From Thermoproteota archaeon (lineage in GTDB: Archaea > Korarchaeota > Korarchaeia > Korarchaeales > Korarchaeaceae): a stretch of 64,000 nucleotides of DNA. Below, in pieces: positions 9,958-36,605 of this stretch (its first letter is position 1; the number at the start of each line of letters is the position of its first letter). The notes under the pieces were generated by a model. The model was not told where the DNA came from. It searched no databases and saw only the letters and a list, made by a program, of their open reading frames with translations. Where the stretch lies: positions 1-64,000 of the forward strand of contig JAOZFI010000006.1 in the NCBI GenBank assembly GCA_027491395.1, in the 5' to 3' direction. The position numbers were made by a program, and so were the translations under genes.

Positions 9958-10690
9958 GCGCGACGATTACAGCATTCCCCTTTTTCTACAGGCCTCCAGA
10001 GCCCTTTCCCACCTGTCCTTCCTTCCGTAGCTCTCGAGTTACTCGAATACCTCATCAGCAGCTCTCCCCTCAACCCGGAGCTCCTTATTACGCCCAAAAT
10101 CCAGTTAAGGTTCTTCTTACCGTCAAGGTAGGCGATCATGGACCTCTTGACGTAGTTTATGGAGGCCCTAGCCAGCTCTCCTGGGTACTCCTTACCCTCC
10201 GATCTAGTCGCCTGTGCTCTTACCTTCTTTTTCCTCTCCTTTGGCTTCCCCTCACCCATCTCCTTCATCTTCAAGTAGAGATCCCTGAGGGTCATGGGCT
10301 CCTCGTATCTCCTGCATACCTCCTCATTGGGTACCACTATCCACACCTCCTTGAACCCCTCCCTATGCGCTGGTTTCCTGCTTTTCTTCCCTGTCTCGAC
10401 CTCTATTCCTATTCCTTCAATCATCAGATCGACATCCGCCCACCTTTCCACCTTCAATCCAAGCTTTCGGGCTAAGAGGACTATCTCCTCGATCATCAGC
10501 TTGTGAAGGTGATTCTCCGAATCGGAAGAAAGCTCGTAATACACGACTTTCCTTCCATGATGATCAATGAGCTCTGTCTTCACCACCTAGCCCTTGTTGA
10601 GGAGCCCCCTCAGGTATGTAAGAACGGCAAACTTCGTCCTGCTTACGTCGGTCCCATACTTTTCAGCGATAGCCATAGCTATCGAGGAGT
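9954..10690 (-). pseudogene. Decayed gene: wHTH fragment followed by PD-(D/E)xK-like domain (mobile-element-type)
   Basis: H..MIEEI...DVDLMIEGIGIEVETG motif. In-frame upstream segment SSIAMAIAEKYG...LRGLLNKG* is separated by TAG 10587-10589. A frameshifted natural-looking C-terminus reads EVFE*LESYGRKDRWERALEACRKRGML. Confidence 0.55.
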
Positions 10691-10919
10691 TGAAGTAGTA
10701 GGAGGATTAGGGGGATGGGTATTGCCCTCAGCATCTTCCTGAGTATCAGGGGGATCATAGACTACTGTAAAGATGAGCTTTCGTGATAAAAGGGGGTTAT
10801 CTAAACACTTCATGAAAACTTTCAGGGGAGGCGCTTCCAGCCCCCCAGATCGCTAGAGCTCTCGAATGAACGAATCGGCCGCATAGGTGATGCGCGGAGT
10901 CTGGTTTAGTTAAGGATTG

Positions 10920-11156
10920 TTAGCAGTCCCTCTCCAATAGTTCGAAGTACTTTTCTCTGGTAAGCCCCGCCTCGGCCATTATAACCCTTATAAGTCCGGG
11001 CTTAAGCTTCTTTCCAGGGTGTACGGGTACTACTATCCTGACGTGTTGCTCATTCACTAGTATCACGTGGGAGCCTCTTTGCCGTATAGGTTTGAATCCA
11101 AGCTTACTAAGTATCTTAATGAGCTTATAAGGATCTATGGGTGTTATTTTAGGCAA
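10920..11156 (-). CDS. hicA: HicA family toxin (intact)
   Basis: LGF..IRQRGSHVIL...VVPVHPG...L.PG motif. Confidence 0.92.
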   Translation of the reverse strand: MPKITPIDPYKLIKILSKLGFKPIRQRGSHVILVNEQHVRIVVPVHPGKKLKPGLIRVIMAEAGLTREKYFELLERDC

Positions 11157-11385
11157 CGGCTTTCACTCTCTGAAGACCTACCACCCTACGGCTTAACAGT
11201 TCCTTCTTTTCCTCCTCAGAGAGTGTTTCGAGGTATAGCTCAATTGCTTCCCTAACATTACTGATCACCTCATCTAGACTATCGCCTTGGGTATGGCATC
11301 CAGGGAGTTCCGGGACGATCGCGACGTATCCTCCGCCCTCATCCTCCAATATAATAACACTAAACTCGCGAATCCTCCTGTCCAT
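11149..11385 (-). CDS. hicB: HicB family antitoxin (copy 2)
   Basis: GGYVAIVPELPGCHTQGDSLDE motif; overlaps hicA. Confidence 0.92.
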   Translation of the reverse strand: MDRRIREFSVIILEDEGGGYVAIVPELPGCHTQGDSLDEVISNVREAIELYLETLSEEEKKELLSRRVVGLQRVKAVA

Positions 11386-11816
11386 GGACTAATCCCCCTC
11401 AAATAAATGAAGTTGGTTCTCCAAGGCAGCCTCCAAAGAACTAGCTTCTTAACTTCTAATAAACTATATCCCGATGACGGTTTTCCTACTCTGGGCCTCA
11501 CTTATCCATACAAGTTTCATAAGCTAATCCCTGCCGGTGCGGTCCCTCCACTCACCTCAGTTCTCTCTTATAGAGTGCTGTATTCCTGCGCAGTGGTCTC
11601 AAGCCTGAACTACCTCAGAAATACTCGCACGGTATCCCAAGGGAGATCAAAGCGTTGACACCACAAATCTCAAGCGATAATATGAGGCGAGATGCGAACT
11701 CTCCCGCATCATAAGCCGATCTCCCCGCTATCCTCTAGCGAACGGGTGGGCAAGAAAAACATATTTTATGTGTAGTGAGAAATCGCATTATACTAGTATC
11801 AACTTCATACGGTAGC

Positions 11817-12131
11817 CTAGTTTTTCCACTGTTTGAAGAATATGTGCCAAATCTGTGTCACACGGGTGACTAGTTCTTCATCACGGTTAACGGCTATAGC
11901 GGCGGCCAGTAGGTCTGCAAATGCTTGGGGCTTCCCCCATCCTCAGTAGCTCAAGTTGTATTCTATGAGCTAGAATGAAGTCATCTCTGATAGGAAATAT
12001 CACTCCGCCATTAAAGTGCTTATAGAAAATGATCTTGGATACTCCACGAGGGTTACAGCCGTTATATCCTCTTGGATGGGCTTCTTCTCTCTAACCCTAT
12101 CAATAACGATACCTGTATCTAGTATGGTCAA
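11817..12131 (-). pseudogene. vapC: Frameshifted VapC/PIN toxin
   Basis: MTILDTGIVIDR...ITAVTLVEYPR / IIFYKHF...LAHRIQLELLRMG / FADLLAAAIAVNRDEELVTR across shifted frames. Confidence 0.75.
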
Positions 12132-12340
12132 GACATCCTCCCCTTCTCCCTACGCCTCAGCTCCCCTACATCATAGATCTCTATATCCTCAGTCAGCTCC
12201 TCCTATCTAATACCAAGCATCTCCCTAACATCAGCTACATCAACACGGCCACCAAGCCTCGCTAAAACGGCCTTTATGATCTCCTTCACCTCCTCCTCAG
12301 AGAGCCATGGAGGAATCCTCACTACCACACTCTTAAACAC
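12128..12340 (-). pseudogene. Putative VapB-type antitoxin with internal TAG (12203-12205)
   Basis: MFKSVVVRIPPWLSEEEVKE...MLGIR*EELTEDIEI...; its stop overlaps the vapC start. Confidence 0.65.
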
Positions 12341-12429
12341 CTACACATACCCAAGACTATATGAGGCCTAAAGAATCTATAATCTTGTTCGACAAACTAC
12401 AGCAGGTACCTCAGAGAGGTTTTAATCTG

Positions 12430-12482
12430 TGGCGGCCGCCGGGATTTGAACCCAAGACTCCGCGGCTCCGGAGGCCGGCTCT
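12430..12482 (-). pseudogene. Degenerate 3' half of a tRNA-Arg(CCG)-like gene (att-site relic)
   Basis: Reverse complement GAGCCGGCCTCCGGAGCCGCGGAGTCTTGGGTTCAAATCCCGGCGGCCGCCA has anticodon arm, T-arm and CCA but no 5' half. Confidence 0.7.
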
Positions 12483-12788
12483 TAAATACCTCTTAACTAA
12501 TTGATAGTGAGCGGGGCAGATAGGTACGGTTTTATACCATTATCCAGTGTATAGGACAGCAGTCTAGAAATTTAGCGATATTAAGAAAGATATTTTGAGA
12601 GAATAGAGGTAATCTCCAATGGATATTAACGTCTTTAATGAATAGATAGGTTATATCTAATATGCTTGCATGTGATTAGTGAACTGATAGATAGAACCAA
12701 TATATGAAGCTCTTGGTTAAGAGAAAGTTAAGCCACTGGATGATACTGCTCCCTTTCCGGTCCCGGAGTTCCACACCTTTCCCTTGGC

Positions 12789-13063
12789 TTAAAAAAGATT
12801 AGAGGATTGAGGGTCAACCTCAGCCATTGGATATACTCCTCTCAAGGGGAACTGGGCCTCGTTCAATATCCTCCTTATGGATTCCGCGTCTGGGGACTCC
12901 CAGCAGTAAATCCTCTTGATCAAGCTTTCCTCTGTTAGTTGGATCCGTGTTAATCCACTTGACCTCTTGAGTGGTGAGGTCCTCCATCTTCCTCCCCATA
13001 GCGGAGACAACTTCAACATACTGGCTCAGCCATATCGTGCACAGTCAAGAACTTTCGGGACAT
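12789..13063 (-). pseudogene. Frameshifted DUF4242-like small protein
   Basis: MSRKFLTVH... / VKWINT... / IYCWESPDAESIRRIL..AQFP..GVYPM.EV in different frames. Confidence 0.5.
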
Positions 13064-13221
13064 CCGCGCGCGATATCAAACGCCTTTCATAGGTAAATTC
13101 TCTAAAGAATCCTTGGAAAGGACTGCTTATGTGGATCCTACCCAAAAACCACACCGCAGAATGAGCGATATCGGATGTAACTCTTGCTCATTACTCCTCA
13201 AAATGACCGTCAGAGAGTGCC

Positions 13222-13821
13222 TTAGGGATAGGGTGCGTTATTTTTTAATAATTGTTGGGCAGCAACCTTTGGATAATATATTCTCAGCACTATGTCTGTC
13301 AAAAGAAGCATGAGTATCATCGCTACACCGTCCTCCCTCTTCATCCCATATCTATGATTGAAAACGCGATAGAAGTAGATGAAGGATAGAGTCGAGAAGG
13401 AAGTATCGATTAGCGCCTTGATTGATGAGTATAGCTCGATACTAGATGCTCCTATAATGGGAAGAAGCACCAGATCCGTTATCAGTGATATAGACGAAAA
13501 GAGAAAGTAAAAAGACACAACACCCAGTATTGGGGAGAGTGGGCCCTTATACACGCTTCTATAAAACAAGAAGAGGTAAGTTAGTGCTCCCAGCAGGCCC
13601 CAGAGTAGGGCTCCGGTGAAGCTGCTTCCTAACAACACAAAATATGCGATAACATATGGGGGAATGGATTGATTGGCTACACCCAGCTCGTTCAGGACGA
13701 TCATTAGGTACAAGGATTGAGTACCCGTGTAGAGCAGGTATAGGAGAAGGGGCCTTCTCCTATTGGATGGAGGGTTATTGTTAAGCAGATCCGGATTTTC
13801 TTCTCTTCTACGTATGGCCAT
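13222..13821 (-). CDS. Multi-pass membrane protein (possibly Yip1-like), last gene of peptide cluster 2
   Basis: About 5 TM segments; overlaps the SpoIIM gene. Confidence 0.6.
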   Translation of the reverse strand: MAIRRREENPDLLNNNPPSNRRRPLLLYLLYTGTQSLYLMIVLNELGVANQSIPPYVIAYFVLLGSSFTGALLWGLLGALTYLFLFYRSVYKGPLSPILGVVSFYFLFSSISLITDLVLLPIIGASSIELYSSIKALIDTSFSTLSFIYFYRVFNHRYGMKREDGVAMILMLLLTDIVLRIYYPKVAAQQLLKNNAPYP

Positions 13822-14341
13822 TTAACTTCACCAAGATGCAAGGTATTGAGAGATAATATTCTATAACTGATGATGATATTATCATAATTAAACTTAATAA
13901 CGCTAATTTTGTTAAATAAACTAAATGATCTCTGGAGAGGTCGTAGGGATCCCCGCCATGGATTACCGTTACGGCGCTCGAAAGACCTACGGATGAGGAT
14001 ATGAGGATGGAGGTGATCTCCAGCGGCCCGTGGAATAGAAAGCAGGGGAGTGCACCTGTCAAGTTTTCTCTGAGAATTTCCCTAAAGATGCTACCTACCA
14101 CCATGCCGTTGAAGCTAAGGGAGAGAGCCGTGAGCGTTCCAAGTGTCACATACCCTATGGAAAGAATCAGGATAACGGAACTGTTCAAGAGGATAAGTCC
14201 GCGTAAATTATAATGTCCATTAAAGGGATGAGGAACAAAAACTCCACCTGACCCTTCCGTGTAAGATTGATCTGGGATCAGGAAGCTTCCTAAGATCCCG
14301 GCCGCATAGAAGAGCGATGCTAAGATCAGTCCCTCACTCAT
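13808..14341 (-). CDS. SpoIIM/DUF95 family membrane protein
   Basis: LILLN, FNGMVVG, HGPLEI and C-terminal 'SSVIE' motifs. Confidence 0.88.
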   Translation of the reverse strand: MSEGLILASLFYAAGILGSFLIPDQSYTEGSGGVFVPHPFNGHYNLRGLILLNSSVILILSIGYVTLGTLTALSLSFNGMVVGSIFREILRENLTGALPCFLFHGPLEITSILISSSVGLSSAVTVIHGGDPYDLSRDHLVYLTKLALLSLIMIISSSVIEYYLSIPCILVKLNGHT

Positions 14342-15305
14342 CCTCGGGCCTTGTTTCGTCCCTACCATGGCTCATCCTCCTGATGATCTCTATTCTCTTC
14401 TCCAAGCTAGGATGCGTTGGAAGTAGGGAGGGGGTTTCCTTCATTCCATATATTTTGATCAGAGCGTTTATCAGATCCTCTGGATTTGAGTAAGATGCTG
14501 CAATGAGATCGGCCTTCACCTCCCTCCTCCTTATCAGGATTAAGAAGACCGACAACGCTGCCAAGAAGCCAGTCACCACTAGCAGAAAGCTTACGGGATC
14601 GCGTGTCGTTACTGTCCCCGTTAAGGAGGAGAGTACTTCGCCTACAAGGAGTAGCATCGCGTACATCAGTAGTGTGTAGCCCAGATACCTGACGATGTCT
14701 CCTTCTTTATAATGGGCGAGCTCGTGGGCCAACACGCTCTTGATCTCTCCATTAGACAGCACCTTAAGCAGATCCTCATTTACGAAGACAGTTGGTTGAA
14801 TGATTCCCCCAAGAAGCGTAGTTTTCATTAGAGAGGATCTGAATAATCGGAGCCTTATATCCTTCCTGATCCCCATCTTTCCCTTAAGATCCTCGAAAAC
14901 CCTCTTCAGATCATCTGGGGGATCCTTTCCTTGACCAATCTTATCGAAAATTAAGGGAACCAGATTAACCGTGACGAACAGTACTACGAGAAAAGTGGAG
15001 AATTCGACTAGGATGCTGTGGCTGGGAAGTGAGGAGATTACAGCAGCATAGATGAAGATTAGATATAAATCGAAGTAATTGAGCAGGAGATCCTTGAATA
15101 ATCTCCTAGTTCCCGGGCTTTCCTTACTCAGAATAGAGTCCATAAGAGAGAGAATTATGGCAGTTAGTATCAAGATTACGAATCCAGTTATAAGAGGGTT
15201 AAGCCCATAATTAACCACGATGAATACACTAAGGGACATCATAGCTATGGCTATGAGAGCCATCACCAAGTTGTAAAGAGAAAAAAATGTAGGATTAGTT
15301 CTCAA
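14334..15305 (-). CDS. M48/HtpX-like membrane zinc metallopeptidase
   Basis: E.KSVLAHELAHY, RRREVKAD, THPSLEKRI motifs; 4 N-terminal TM segments. Confidence 0.9.
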   Translation of the reverse strand: MRTNPTFFSLYNLVMALIAIAMMSLSVFIVVNYGLNPLITGFVILILTAIILSLMDSILSKESPGTRRLFKDLLLNYFDLYLIFIYAAVISSLPSHSILVEFSTFLVVLFVTVNLVPLIFDKIGQGKDPPDDLKRVFEDLKGKMGIRKDIRLRLFRSSLMKTTLLGGIIQPTVFVNEDLLKVLSNGEIKSVLAHELAHYKEGDIVRYLGYTLLMYAMLLLVGEVLSSLTGTVTTRDPVSFLLVVTGFLAALSVFLILIRRREVKADLIAASYSNPEDLINALIKIYGMKETPSLLPTHPSLEKRIEIIRRMSHGRDETRPEDE

Positions 15306-15315
15306 TACAGATCCC

Positions 15316-15561
15316 TTACCCTATTAGGAAACTACCTACTGCTACAAGAGCGCCGGCTAAACCCGTAATTGGAGTACTGCATGCTGCTATTTTTGCTAGG
15401 GCTAAGAAGTACCCTCCTAGTGCCACTGCAGCTGCTCCATAATTACCTCTAGCAAGTAGATAGCCTACTCCCAACTGAGTTGCTGCAGGTGTTAATATAG
15501 GAAGTACCAATATTGCTATATTGAGGGCGAGAAGGGCTAGGGCTTTCTTTTCTGCCTCCAT
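15316..15561 (-). CDS. Small hydrophobic peptide precursor (putative circular bacteriocin/archaeocin precursor 2)
   Basis: 81 aa, Ala/Gly/Leu-rich, ends in Gly. SD GGGGTGAT and AT-rich TATA-like TTTTATAA upstream. First gene of the peptidase-SpoIIM operon. Confidence 0.75.
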   Translation of the reverse strand: MEAEKKALALLALNIAILVLPILTPAATQLGVGYLLARGNYGAAAVALGGYFLALAKIAACSTPITGLAGALVAVGSFLIG

Positions 15562-15922
15562 TTCATCACCCCCTGAGGATATTATTCTCTTAATTTGGGA
15601 AATATTATAAAAATATTGCGCGTAATCTACCTTTTTTATAAAAAAGGAAGAACACTGAAAAATTTGAAGATGACAGCATCCTTAGGGTAGAATCATCTGT
15701 CTAGATTTCAACAGAAGTGGGTATGCTAAATTGATTCAAGTGAGAAGGTTCTATTTTATGAGATTCTAGGAGGACTCTCATGAGGCATTTAAGCTAGAGA
15801 TAGTTGCTGCCAATCGACTAAAAGGTTCTACATTGAAATATTAATCCCAATTAATTAGATTCGGTTTATGCTCCCCTTATCAGTCAAAATCTCCCAATCT
15901 CCAATAGCTAATCGATTTTTCA

Positions 15923-16240
15923 CACCTAGCCTCTGTTGAGGAGCCTCCTCAGGTAGTTAGGACGACGAACTTTGTTCTGTTGATATCGATCCCATACTTA
16001 TCGGCAATGGCCCTAGCTATCGAGGAGGTATTCTAATACCGTTCTCCGCTAAAAGGCGTAGGATCTCTCCTGCGTAGTCTACACTGGTCTTGGTGGACTC
16101 CCTATGTCCTCTATAGGATCTTCGAGGAGTTTCTGCCGAAAATACCCTGATCGCATCTACTATGGGTGTCTCAACTACCTCGCTCAGCCTCTTAACGTAA
16201 TGAAGTCCTGAGCGGAGGTCAGGGAAGCCCCACCGTAGAG
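15923..16240 (-). pseudogene. Second fragment of the wHTH-containing gene seen at 10584-10690
   Basis: DYAGEILRLLAENG / SSIARAIADKYGIDINRTKFVVL / YLRRLLNRG*; DNA similar to 10584-10689. Confidence 0.55.
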
Positions 16241-27886: not shown

Positions 27887-28954
27887 CTAATTGGTCTGCG
27901 ACCGGAACCTCTCAGTGAGGGTCACCAAGTAGGTCTTGCCGTACTTCTTCCTCTCCACAACCTTTCTATCGACCAGATCTTTCAATAGTCTGCTTATCTT
28001 TGGTTTAGAGAACCCGGTCAGCTCGGGGAGCTCCTCTTGCGACACTTCGCCCCTCTCCATGACGACCTCTATGAGCTTCCTTTCATCCACGGTGAAGAAG
28101 TCCATTACGTCGGAGGGACCCGGCTTGGGCCTCAGCCTGTAGATCAAGATCGCCATTGCCAGGCCGGCAAGCAAACCAGTGAGGAGGGGGAGGGGGCTGA
28201 GGATCTCCCTCATTATGAACGAGGGTGACCATCCGCCTGAGAAGGGCTTGGTACCTCCTATCTCCCCGATGACCTCCACCTTATACCCTTGGGATGTGAA
28301 CTTAGCTGCCTCCTCCCTATCCAAGCTATTGCTTATCACCACCAAGCTCCTCACATCCTTGAGGTGCTCCCTCAGGGCCGCTTCAAATCCCTCGGGAGGC
28401 CTGCCGTTCATCGTGTAGATTATCGGGGCGTTCCTCTCCACGGCAACGGAGAGCGCTACCATATAGTAGGAGGAATTGAGCCCGTCAGCCAGCACCACCG
28501 AATCGCAGTCGTTCCAGTAGTACATGGCTAGGAGGAGGGATGTGTCGAGCCTAGTTGCCCCTCCTATCCTGCTGACGGTCGCCCCCATCCCTCGTAGCTT
28601 CTCCTCGAACTCAATGGGGACGGCGTTAGGGGCACCTATTATGAGGATGCTCATTCCCTTACGGAACCTCATGAACCCGGAGAGGAGTTTGAGCACCTCT
28701 CCCTCGTTGTCCGCCGTTAGATGCATGACCCAAGATCCGTGGGTTATGCCATAGGCCATGGCCACCGCCCAGTCGGTGTATATGTCCCCCCTAACGATCA
28801 CTGCATCGAAGCGGATTGGTTGCCCCGAGATGGGTAGCAGAGGTATGATCAGGATGATCAGCAGGAGTATGGCGGGCCCGCCGGGACTCGAACCCGGGAC
28901 CTCCGGCTCAGCAGGCCGGCGCTCTAATCCTTGCTGAGCTACGGGCCCGCTCAT
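27887..28954 (-). CDS. Membrane protein: signal peptide, cell-wall-binding-repeat-2-like domain, TM helix, C-terminal winged HTH
   Basis: RIGGATRLDTS CWB2-like motif; TM near aa 255-275; QEELPELTGFSKPKISRLL..L wHTH. N-terminus reads through a tRNA-like gene. Confidence 0.8.
   Translation of the reverse strand: MSGPVAQQGLERRPAEPEVPGSSPGGPAILLLIILIIPLLPISGQPIRFDAVIVRGDIYTDWAVAMAYGITHGSWVMHLTADNEGEVLKLLSGFMRFRKGMSILIIGAPNAVPIEFEEKLRGMGATVSRIGGATRLDTSLLLAMYYWNDCDSVVLADGLNSSYYMVALSVAVERNAPIIYTMNGRPPEGFEAALREHLKDVRSLVVISNSLDREEAAKFTSQGYKVEVIGEIGGTKPFSGGWSPSFIMREILSPLPLLTGLLAGLAMAILIYRLRPKPGPSDVMDFFTVDERKLIEVVMERGEVSQEELPELTGFSKPKISRLLKDLVDRKVVERKKYGKTYLVTLTERFRSQTN
28870..28948 (-). tRNA. tRNA with Arg-type class I body but GCT (Ser) anticodon
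   Basis: Perfect cloverleaf GGGCCCG..GCTC-AGCAAGGATTA-GAGC G CCGGC-CTGCTGA-GCCGG AGGTC CCGGG-TTCGAGT-CCCGG CGGGCCC G CCA. Confidence 0.85.
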
Positions 28955-36495: not shown

Positions 36496-36605
36496 TGGCG
36501 CCGGGGGTGGGATTCGAACCCACGAGGCCCGTGAGGGCCACCGGATCTCGAGTCCGGCCCCTTGCTTCGCCGGGCGCTTGGGCCCTCTGGCTAGGGTACC
36601 CCGGC
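36496..36605 (-). tRNA. tRNA-Ser (CGA) with 21-nt non-canonical D-loop intron (36566-36586)
   Basis: Long variable arm, anticodon loop CTCGAGA, G73, CCA. Removing the intron restores D-loop AGCCAGGCA. Confidence 0.88.

Follow-up and report, generated by a model that had tools for sequence, protein, structure and literature searches.

A serine-type GCU anticodon private to the tRNA-Arg(GCG) gene of one korarchaeal genome: probably an artefact or unfixed variant, possibly a very recent mutation

Does a free-living hyperthermophilic archaeon carry an arginine tRNA that reads serine codons, or does a single base make its assembly appear to do so? The question arises from a tRNA gene in a 64,000-nt stretch of korarchaeal DNA (the window, meaning here the whole stretch that was analysed), which is part of contig C26 of a genome, G000, of 1.716 Mb in 62 contigs and 98.4% completeness. 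ARAGORN called a tRNA with the anticodon gct on the minus strand at 28870-28948, and Rfam model RF00005 matched the same interval with 67.3 bits (gathering score 29, E 1.7e-12) and no non-canonical pairs flagged. The 79 nt of the gene comprise a 76-nt class-I cloverleaf followed by an encoded CCA, and its parts are collected in Table 1 together with the other annotated RNAs of the window.

Table 1. Coordinates, strand and supporting evidence for features of the tRNA locus and for other RNA genes of the window.
Feature	Position in window	Strand	Evidence
tRNA gene, Arg-type class-I body, anticodon GCU	28870..28948	-	ARAGORN; Rfam RF00005; 78/79 bases as in G010 tRNA-Arg(GCG); alignment
Anticodon G34 C35 U36 (A-G-C on + strand)	28910..28912	-	direct sequence reading; ARAGORN
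Single private base U36 (A on + strand); G36 (C on + strand) in 20/20 recovered orthologues	28910	-	comparison with orthologues; three-genome alignment
Acceptor stem GGGCCCG/CGGGCCC	within 28870..28948	-	sequence reading
U8 A9	within 28870..28948	-	sequence reading
D stem GCUC/GAGC, D loop AGCAAGGAUUA, A after G18G19	within 28870..28948	-	sequence reading
Anticodon stem CCGGC/GCCGG, loop CU-GCU-GA, hence G37	within 28870..28948	-	sequence reading
Variable loop AGGUC, 5 nt	within 28870..28948	-	sequence reading
T stem CCGGG/CCCGG	within 28870..28948	-	sequence reading
Discriminator G73 and encoded CCA	within 28870..28948	-	sequence reading
Candidate archaeal TATA-like promoter element, A/T-rich box TTTTTCAA	28987..28994	-	39-46 nt upstream of mature 5' end; inferred
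Archaeal 23S rRNA, 3' end	1-681		Rfam, 605 bits
Archaeal RNase P RNA, complete	6646-6932		Rfam, 175.6 bits

Set against a class-II tRNA-Ser, the gene has a serine anticodon, GCU, which reads AGY, but lacks the long variable arm, its variable loop being 5 nt; the tRNA-Ser(CGA) of the same window (36496-36583), which served as a comparator, is 88 nt and thus of long-arm class-II size (ARAGORN). With BLAST identity to the genome's own isoacceptors taken as a proxy for isotype assignment, the gene was 87-90% identical to the Arg tRNAs CCG, CCU, UCG and UCU of G000, and no Ser tRNA was among the matches. The acceptor stem, the D arm and the A after GG are common to the gene and to all four of these undisputed Arg tRNAs. 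A 355-aa ORF (27887-28954, minus strand) starts upstream of the tRNA gene and passes through it, and the true start of the downstream gene must lie below 28870.

The relatives of the gene were sought by BLAST in 40 related genomes with a 121-nt query made up of the tRNA and its 20-nt flanks. The query was found in the same genomic context at 99% identity in G010, the nearest relative, and at 95% in both G012 and G002, the last of which is the outgroup of our three-way alignments, and the 3.1-kb loci around these matches are colinear with the window at 96.1% (G010), 93.0% (G002) and 92.0% (G012) identity. The G010 gene (locus L002) is a tRNA-Arg(GCG) with which ours shares its position, its flanks, G37, G73, the encoded CCA and 78 of 79 bases, the sole difference being U36 for G36 (window 28910), and hence GCU for GCG. 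Other genomes yielded 29 loci, of which 20 carry a GCG orthologue, all 20 reading GCG in ARAGORN, and the remaining nine hold other Arg isoacceptors; the 20 orthologues were drawn from 16 of 20 same-genus genomes, three of four other family-level genomes and one of two order-level genomes. When the 21 genes are aligned together with their upstream 60 nt, position 36 is T in the window alone and G in every one of the 20 relatives, and the three-genome alignment polarises 28910 as a G000-private C>A on the plus strand. The same 21-gene alignment contains compensatory changes in the stems among the relatives, which fits a working tRNA, and the TTTTTCAA box upstream, found in nine of the 21 sequences, is the same in G000 and G010. 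Judged from its sequence and flanks, the gene is the syntenic orthologue of the tRNA-Arg(GCG) of the genus, agreeing with that family in genomic position and Arg-type body and departing from it in a one-base private difference that replaces the GCG anticodon.

The preliminary description of this DNA, made from the letters of the window, had listed a paired cloverleaf, CCA, the AGGUC loop, A20, G37, G73 and a CT-GCT-GA anticodon loop, every one of which we found. Its proposal of an arginine body with an ancestral tRNA-Arg(GCG) is borne out by synteny and by the one-base difference from G010.

No GCG orthologue was recovered from four genomes of the same genus, namely G001 (83% complete), G007 (63%), G014 (70%) and G017 (99%). 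A 13-mer arm pattern had no matches in G001, G014 and G017, and its one match in G007 is not a tRNA; G017 gave 37 Rfam tRNA matches, as opposed to the 44 of G000, so that its tRNA set is incompletely assembled. The missing orthologues of these four genomes are uninformative for either side of the question.

Two further observations concern tRNAs of the relatives. In G002, two partial matches (C4:161883-161939 and C4:162874-162928) cover only the tRNA 3' half (query 48-104) and lie ~15 kb from the Arg(GCG) gene of that genome; integrated elements may have left them as remnants of attachment sites. In the sister family, the Arg(UCU)-like tRNAs of L029 (G028:C18) and L030 (G027:C56) have a ~17-nt insert in the D-loop region, owing to which ARAGORN mislabels them as Pyl(cta) and Ser(aga), and they look like carriers of a non-canonical intron.

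A wider scan used an exact pattern of the 25-nt anticodon arm in which the stem positions that vary among the orthologues were left degenerate. The GCU form of this pattern had no match in genome_contigs and none in metagenome_contigs, collections from which the records of the window's own genome may be absent, and the equal pattern for the GCG arm had at least 119 and at least 120 matches, respectively. A limited search of the literature turned up no description of a GCU tRNA with an Arg body from archaea.

An inventory of the Arg(GCG) and Ser(GCT) genes of the genome and its relatives had also been suggested in the preliminary description. Besides the four Arg tRNAs named above, the whole-genome ARAGORN and Rfam inventories of the 98.4%-complete G000 contain no tRNA-Arg(GCG) elsewhere, and they include a normal, intron-bearing tRNA-Ser(GCU) with a long arm and A37 (C45:40099-40201). 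A second or partial copy of the gene was not found in G000 by BLAST, and a regular expression for a 5-bp stem around a YU-GCG-R loop matched eight places in the genome, none of them an Arg(GCG) tRNA. Hidden intron-bearing copies were rejected, the intron-bearing tRNAs mislabelled by ARAGORN reading CAU (C26:131648), UAU (C37:18295) and CCA (C50:3001), and the 'Arg tcg' that ARAGORN called at C37:12332 lies antisense over a tRNA-Gln and lacks a separate Rfam match. Archaea are described as using G34 tRNAs for pyrimidine-ending codons (PMC8450103), and since there is no other Arg(GCG) in G000, the gene fills the place of the only CGY reader. One ArgRS was found, with matches at the starts of two contigs (C5:603-998 and C50:81-302) that cover different parts of the Pfam model, so that an assembly break seems to have split its gene; SerRS gave one full match above the cut-off.

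Codon usage was assessed in a crude ORF set of G000 comprising 1,617 ORFs and 502,023 codons. CGY accounts for 2,095 codons (4.2 per 1,000) and occurs in 1,029 of the 1,617 ORFs (64%), AGY for 10,555 codons in 1,589 ORFs (98%), and AGR for 31,043 codons (62 per 1,000). Were U36 real, ~2,100 CGY codons in ~1,000 genes would be left with no cognate reader, and an Arg-charged tRNA would be pitted against tRNA-Ser(GCU) at ~10,500 AGY codons. Three CGY codons were lost and eight gained on the G000 branch, compared with eight lost and one gained on the G010 branch (Fisher p = 0.0098), which is the opposite of what is expected of a lineage deprived of its CGY reader. For AGY the figures were 16 lost and 15 gained on the G000 branch and seven lost and 21 gained on that of G010, a weak, non-significant trend (p = 0.06) to which we give no weight. 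Among the 307 G000 AGY codons that differ from G002, 193 align with Ser codons and 18 with Arg codons, which indicates that AGY means serine in G000; the earlier remark that AGC still encodes Ser here, so that there is no full reassignment, holds, and neither codon usage nor the alignments of G000 contain a signature of codon reassignment.

At position 36, the replacement of G by T would convert the anticodon GCG, which reads the arginine codons CGU and CGC, into GCU, which reads the serine codons AGU and AGC. We infer that such a change, private as it is, would be too costly to persist: it falls on the most constrained position of a tRNA present in a single copy, there is no back-up gene and no genomic adaptation, and CGY was gained recently. 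This expected cost favours the reading that the T arose as an error of base calling or consensus, or that the assembler picked up a rare or unfixed variant; to this reading we assign a probability of roughly 0.55, and it takes in the assembly error named among the options of the preliminary description. The organism would then decode CGY with an ordinary tRNA-Arg(GCG), and the base in the assembly alone would differ.

If the T is an error, the assembly around it should be considered, and for this ~150 kb of G000 were aligned to G010 with G002 as the outgroup, giving 149,797 three-way sites. G000 has 2,903 private substitutions (a branch of 1.94%) and G010 has 2,993, and the two spectra match, C>A, the class to which 28910 belongs, making up 11.2% of the G000-private and 10.8% of the G010-private changes; an excess of C>A of the oxidative-damage type was thus not seen in the G000 assembly. 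The private changes in 142 ORFs, expressed as synonymous to nonsynonymous, number 1,528:438 in G000 and 1,475:536 in G010, a signature of purifying selection in both, and three of 122 ORFs are privately broken in G000 and five of 124 in G010. Among the twelve tRNAs that could be aligned three ways, the two further G000-private changes fall in Ser(CGA) and Cys(GCA), at benign positions outside the anticodons; G010 has three private changes. The assembly of G000 therefore looks equal in quality to that of its neighbour, which argues against a generally sloppy consensus and is still compatible with one wrong base. Two other origins of the T were considered and rejected. In a chimeric assembly the 5' half and G34 would derive from the GCG gene and U36 from a YCU-type gene, which would have A37, so that two crossovers within 2 nt would be needed; replacement of the tRNA 3' half by integration at an attachment site was set aside, G000 having no partial copy of the tRNA and C26:16093-39296 being colinear with G010.

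Public sequencing runs were also compared with the locus. Of 11 runs listed, none of them RNA, the best accounts for 0.21 of the words sampled. Four runs, each from a different study and all as Logan contigs, were compared with the window at a likeness of at least 88%, and the long pieces over the flanks differed in 35-38 letters per ~500 (~93% alike), so that these pieces come from relatives and not from the source strain; pieces at least 99% alike to the window numbered three of 56 in run X1 and none in the other three, and the 40 of 85 rows listed do not include position 28910.

The clean assembly and the rarity of CGY keep a second reading plausible, which we hold tentatively and consider less probable than the first, namely that the T is genuine and is the dominant base of the strain sampled, as a very recent private G36U change in the only tRNA-Arg(GCG) gene, with arginine at AGY as a side effect that is neutral to harmful and unselected. 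The long private branch of G000 and the real substitutions in its other tRNA genes make a real mutation at 28910 entirely possible; the rest of the tRNA and of the 121 nt around it is intact and identical to G010, and a frequency of 4.2 CGY codons per 1,000 may make the loss of a GCG tRNA less costly than in most organisms. The burden could also be eased by near-cognate reading, U34 tRNAs being described as capable of reading four-codon boxes in plastids (PMC3499367). Against a real change stand its restriction to one assembly, the absence of a back-up GCG gene and the presence of CGY in 64% and of AGY in 98% of the crude ORFs. The CGY gains on the G000 branch imply that the change, if real, is very young.

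The consequences of a real U36 can be set out conditionally, step by step. The upstream region, including the TTTTTCAA box, is the same as in G010, so that transcription should be unchanged. ArgRS must accept both NCG and YCU anticodons, so that it meets C35 with U36 naturally in the Arg(YCU) isoacceptors, and would be expected to still charge the U36 tRNA with arginine; likewise, the acceptor stem, D arm and A after GG that the gene shares with the Arg tRNAs of G000 predict, on sequence grounds, that the body would remain an ArgRS substrate. SerRS would be unlikely to charge the tRNA, the long arm being absent. The ArgRS identity set of A20, C35, U/G36 and A/G73 is bacterial, and the archaeal Arg entry is blank in Table 1 of the review that gives it (PMC9976931). 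All of the corresponding nucleotides (A after G18G19, C35, U36 and G73) are present in the gene, when counted by this bacterial set in place of an experimental archaeal one. The earlier argument from ArgRS identity is hence right as to the nucleotides, and the A20, C35 and G-or-U36 rule on which it drew is the bacterial rule; that archaeal Arg determinants have no experimental basis in the review (PMC9976931), and that both charging and decoding of the U36 tRNA are predicted, weigh against the second reading.

At the ribosome, G34 would pair with AGC and AGU, where arginine would compete with serine. Readers of AGN codons normally carry A37, and since the gene keeps G37, in place of the A37 of the G000 tRNA-Ser(GCU), decoding should be weakened. 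CGY would then be read inefficiently by the near-cognate UCG or CCG tRNAs. Provided that U36 is real and that the RNA is made and charged with arginine, a combination that we regard as unlikely, this would be a wild hyperthermophilic archaeon just after the loss of its only cognate reader of CGU and CGC and the gain of a tRNA that puts arginine at AGU and AGC. Such an archaeon would mistranslate Ser to Arg naturally and with no buffer, as a live 'ambiguous intermediate' of codon reassignment, and the rarity of CGY together with the weak decoding expected from G37 may be why it is tolerated.

A selected device would be a different matter, whether a tRNA whose purpose is mistranslation or the onset of a reassignment of AGY from Ser to Arg with CGY becoming unassigned. 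The perfect cloverleaf, the encoded CCA, the intact promoter region and the AGY loss trend mentioned above could be cited for it. The lack of conservation largely refutes it, GCU occurring in none of the 20 orthologues and in neither contig collection; furthermore, CGY has been gained rather than purged, AGY aligns with Ser and no duplicated tRNA or synthetase was found, so that we consider such a device exceedingly improbable. An evolved mistranslating tRNA would recur in independent genomes and have a normal copy or a dedicated synthetase alongside, and neither was found here. The 'mistranslating allo-tRNA' offered by the preliminary description, taken as an evolved system, is accordingly not supported by these results: a spare GCG copy was not found, nor were additional ArgRS or SerRS genes, and codon usage has not responded. 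The allo-tRNAs and other irregular bacterial tRNAs that Mukai et al. reportedly described in 2017 are said to have unusual cloverleaves and long variable arms and to recur across genomes. They share with our gene a disagreement between body identity and anticodon, but the G000 gene differs in its canonical 7/5 class-I cloverleaf, in being a singleton and in having no partner genes.

A mismatch between anticodon and body would also be accounted for if the gene were a pseudogene in decay or if, as the preliminary description allowed, its RNA served outside translation or had its anticodon restored by editing. That mismatch is the only hint of any of them and is specific to none, whereas the gene has no other lesions, shares 78 of 79 bases with a functional orthologue, has all stems paired and scores 67.3 bits, and no other candidate for an essential isoacceptor was found. 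Editing would in addition require a change of U to G; C-to-U and A-to-I are known, and we know of no tRNA editing chemistry that turns U into G. Taken together, these alternatives are very improbable, if slightly less so than a selected device.

The nearest precedents for a real change come from eukaryotes. In evolved yeast, Arg isoacceptors were reported to switch by mutation of a tRNA anticodon (PMC3868979), and there, as would hold for G000 if ArgRS accepts its tRNA, one anticodon point mutation alters the codons read by an unchanged body that the synthetase still accepts; the yeast switch, as reported, lies within one amino acid, in a multi-copy family and under selection, whereas the G000 change crosses into the serine box in a single-copy gene with no sign of selection. 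Spontaneous mistranslating tRNA variants have likewise been described in yeast and human genomes (10.1101/2021.05.12.443880; PMC11028032), in which a single-nucleotide anticodon variant sets the anticodon against the identity of the body, as in our gene. The variants covered by these accounts are mostly Ser, Ala and Leu tRNAs, whose synthetases ignore the anticodon and whose many gene copies act as a buffer; in G000, by contrast, ArgRS reads the anticodon but should accept C35-U36, and a buffering copy is absent. Conflicts of this kind are flagged by tRNAscan-SE 2.0 as an 'isotype prediction disagreement' (PMC8450103).

Should the favoured reading be right and the T be an error, the locus is a warning that the appearance of a recoding tRNA can come from one wrong base in a metagenome-assembled genome, and that tRNA inventories of such genomes call for checks at read level. 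Should it be real, an archaeal tRNA that exists in one copy and is recognised by its anticodon has undergone an anticodon point mutation, a rare case in nature, and both Ser-to-Arg mistranslation and the loss of a CGY reader, as tolerated by a free-living hyperthermophile, become measurable. In neither case does the locus point to a new genetic code or to a new tRNA class.

Three minor observations concern other parts of the assembly. Positions 7000-16000 of the window align with G010 only piecewise, at 72-92% identity amid surroundings of 96-97%, and thus form a locally variable or rearranged region. The RNase P RNA carries private differences among G000, G010 and G002. An intron-bearing tRNA at G000:C37:18295-18405, labelled Leu(taa) by ARAGORN, has a CU-UAU-A loop followed by a 33-nt insert and a body like that of the tRNA-Ile(GAU) of the same genome, and may be a tRNA-Ile(UAU), a tRNA that is uncommon in archaea.
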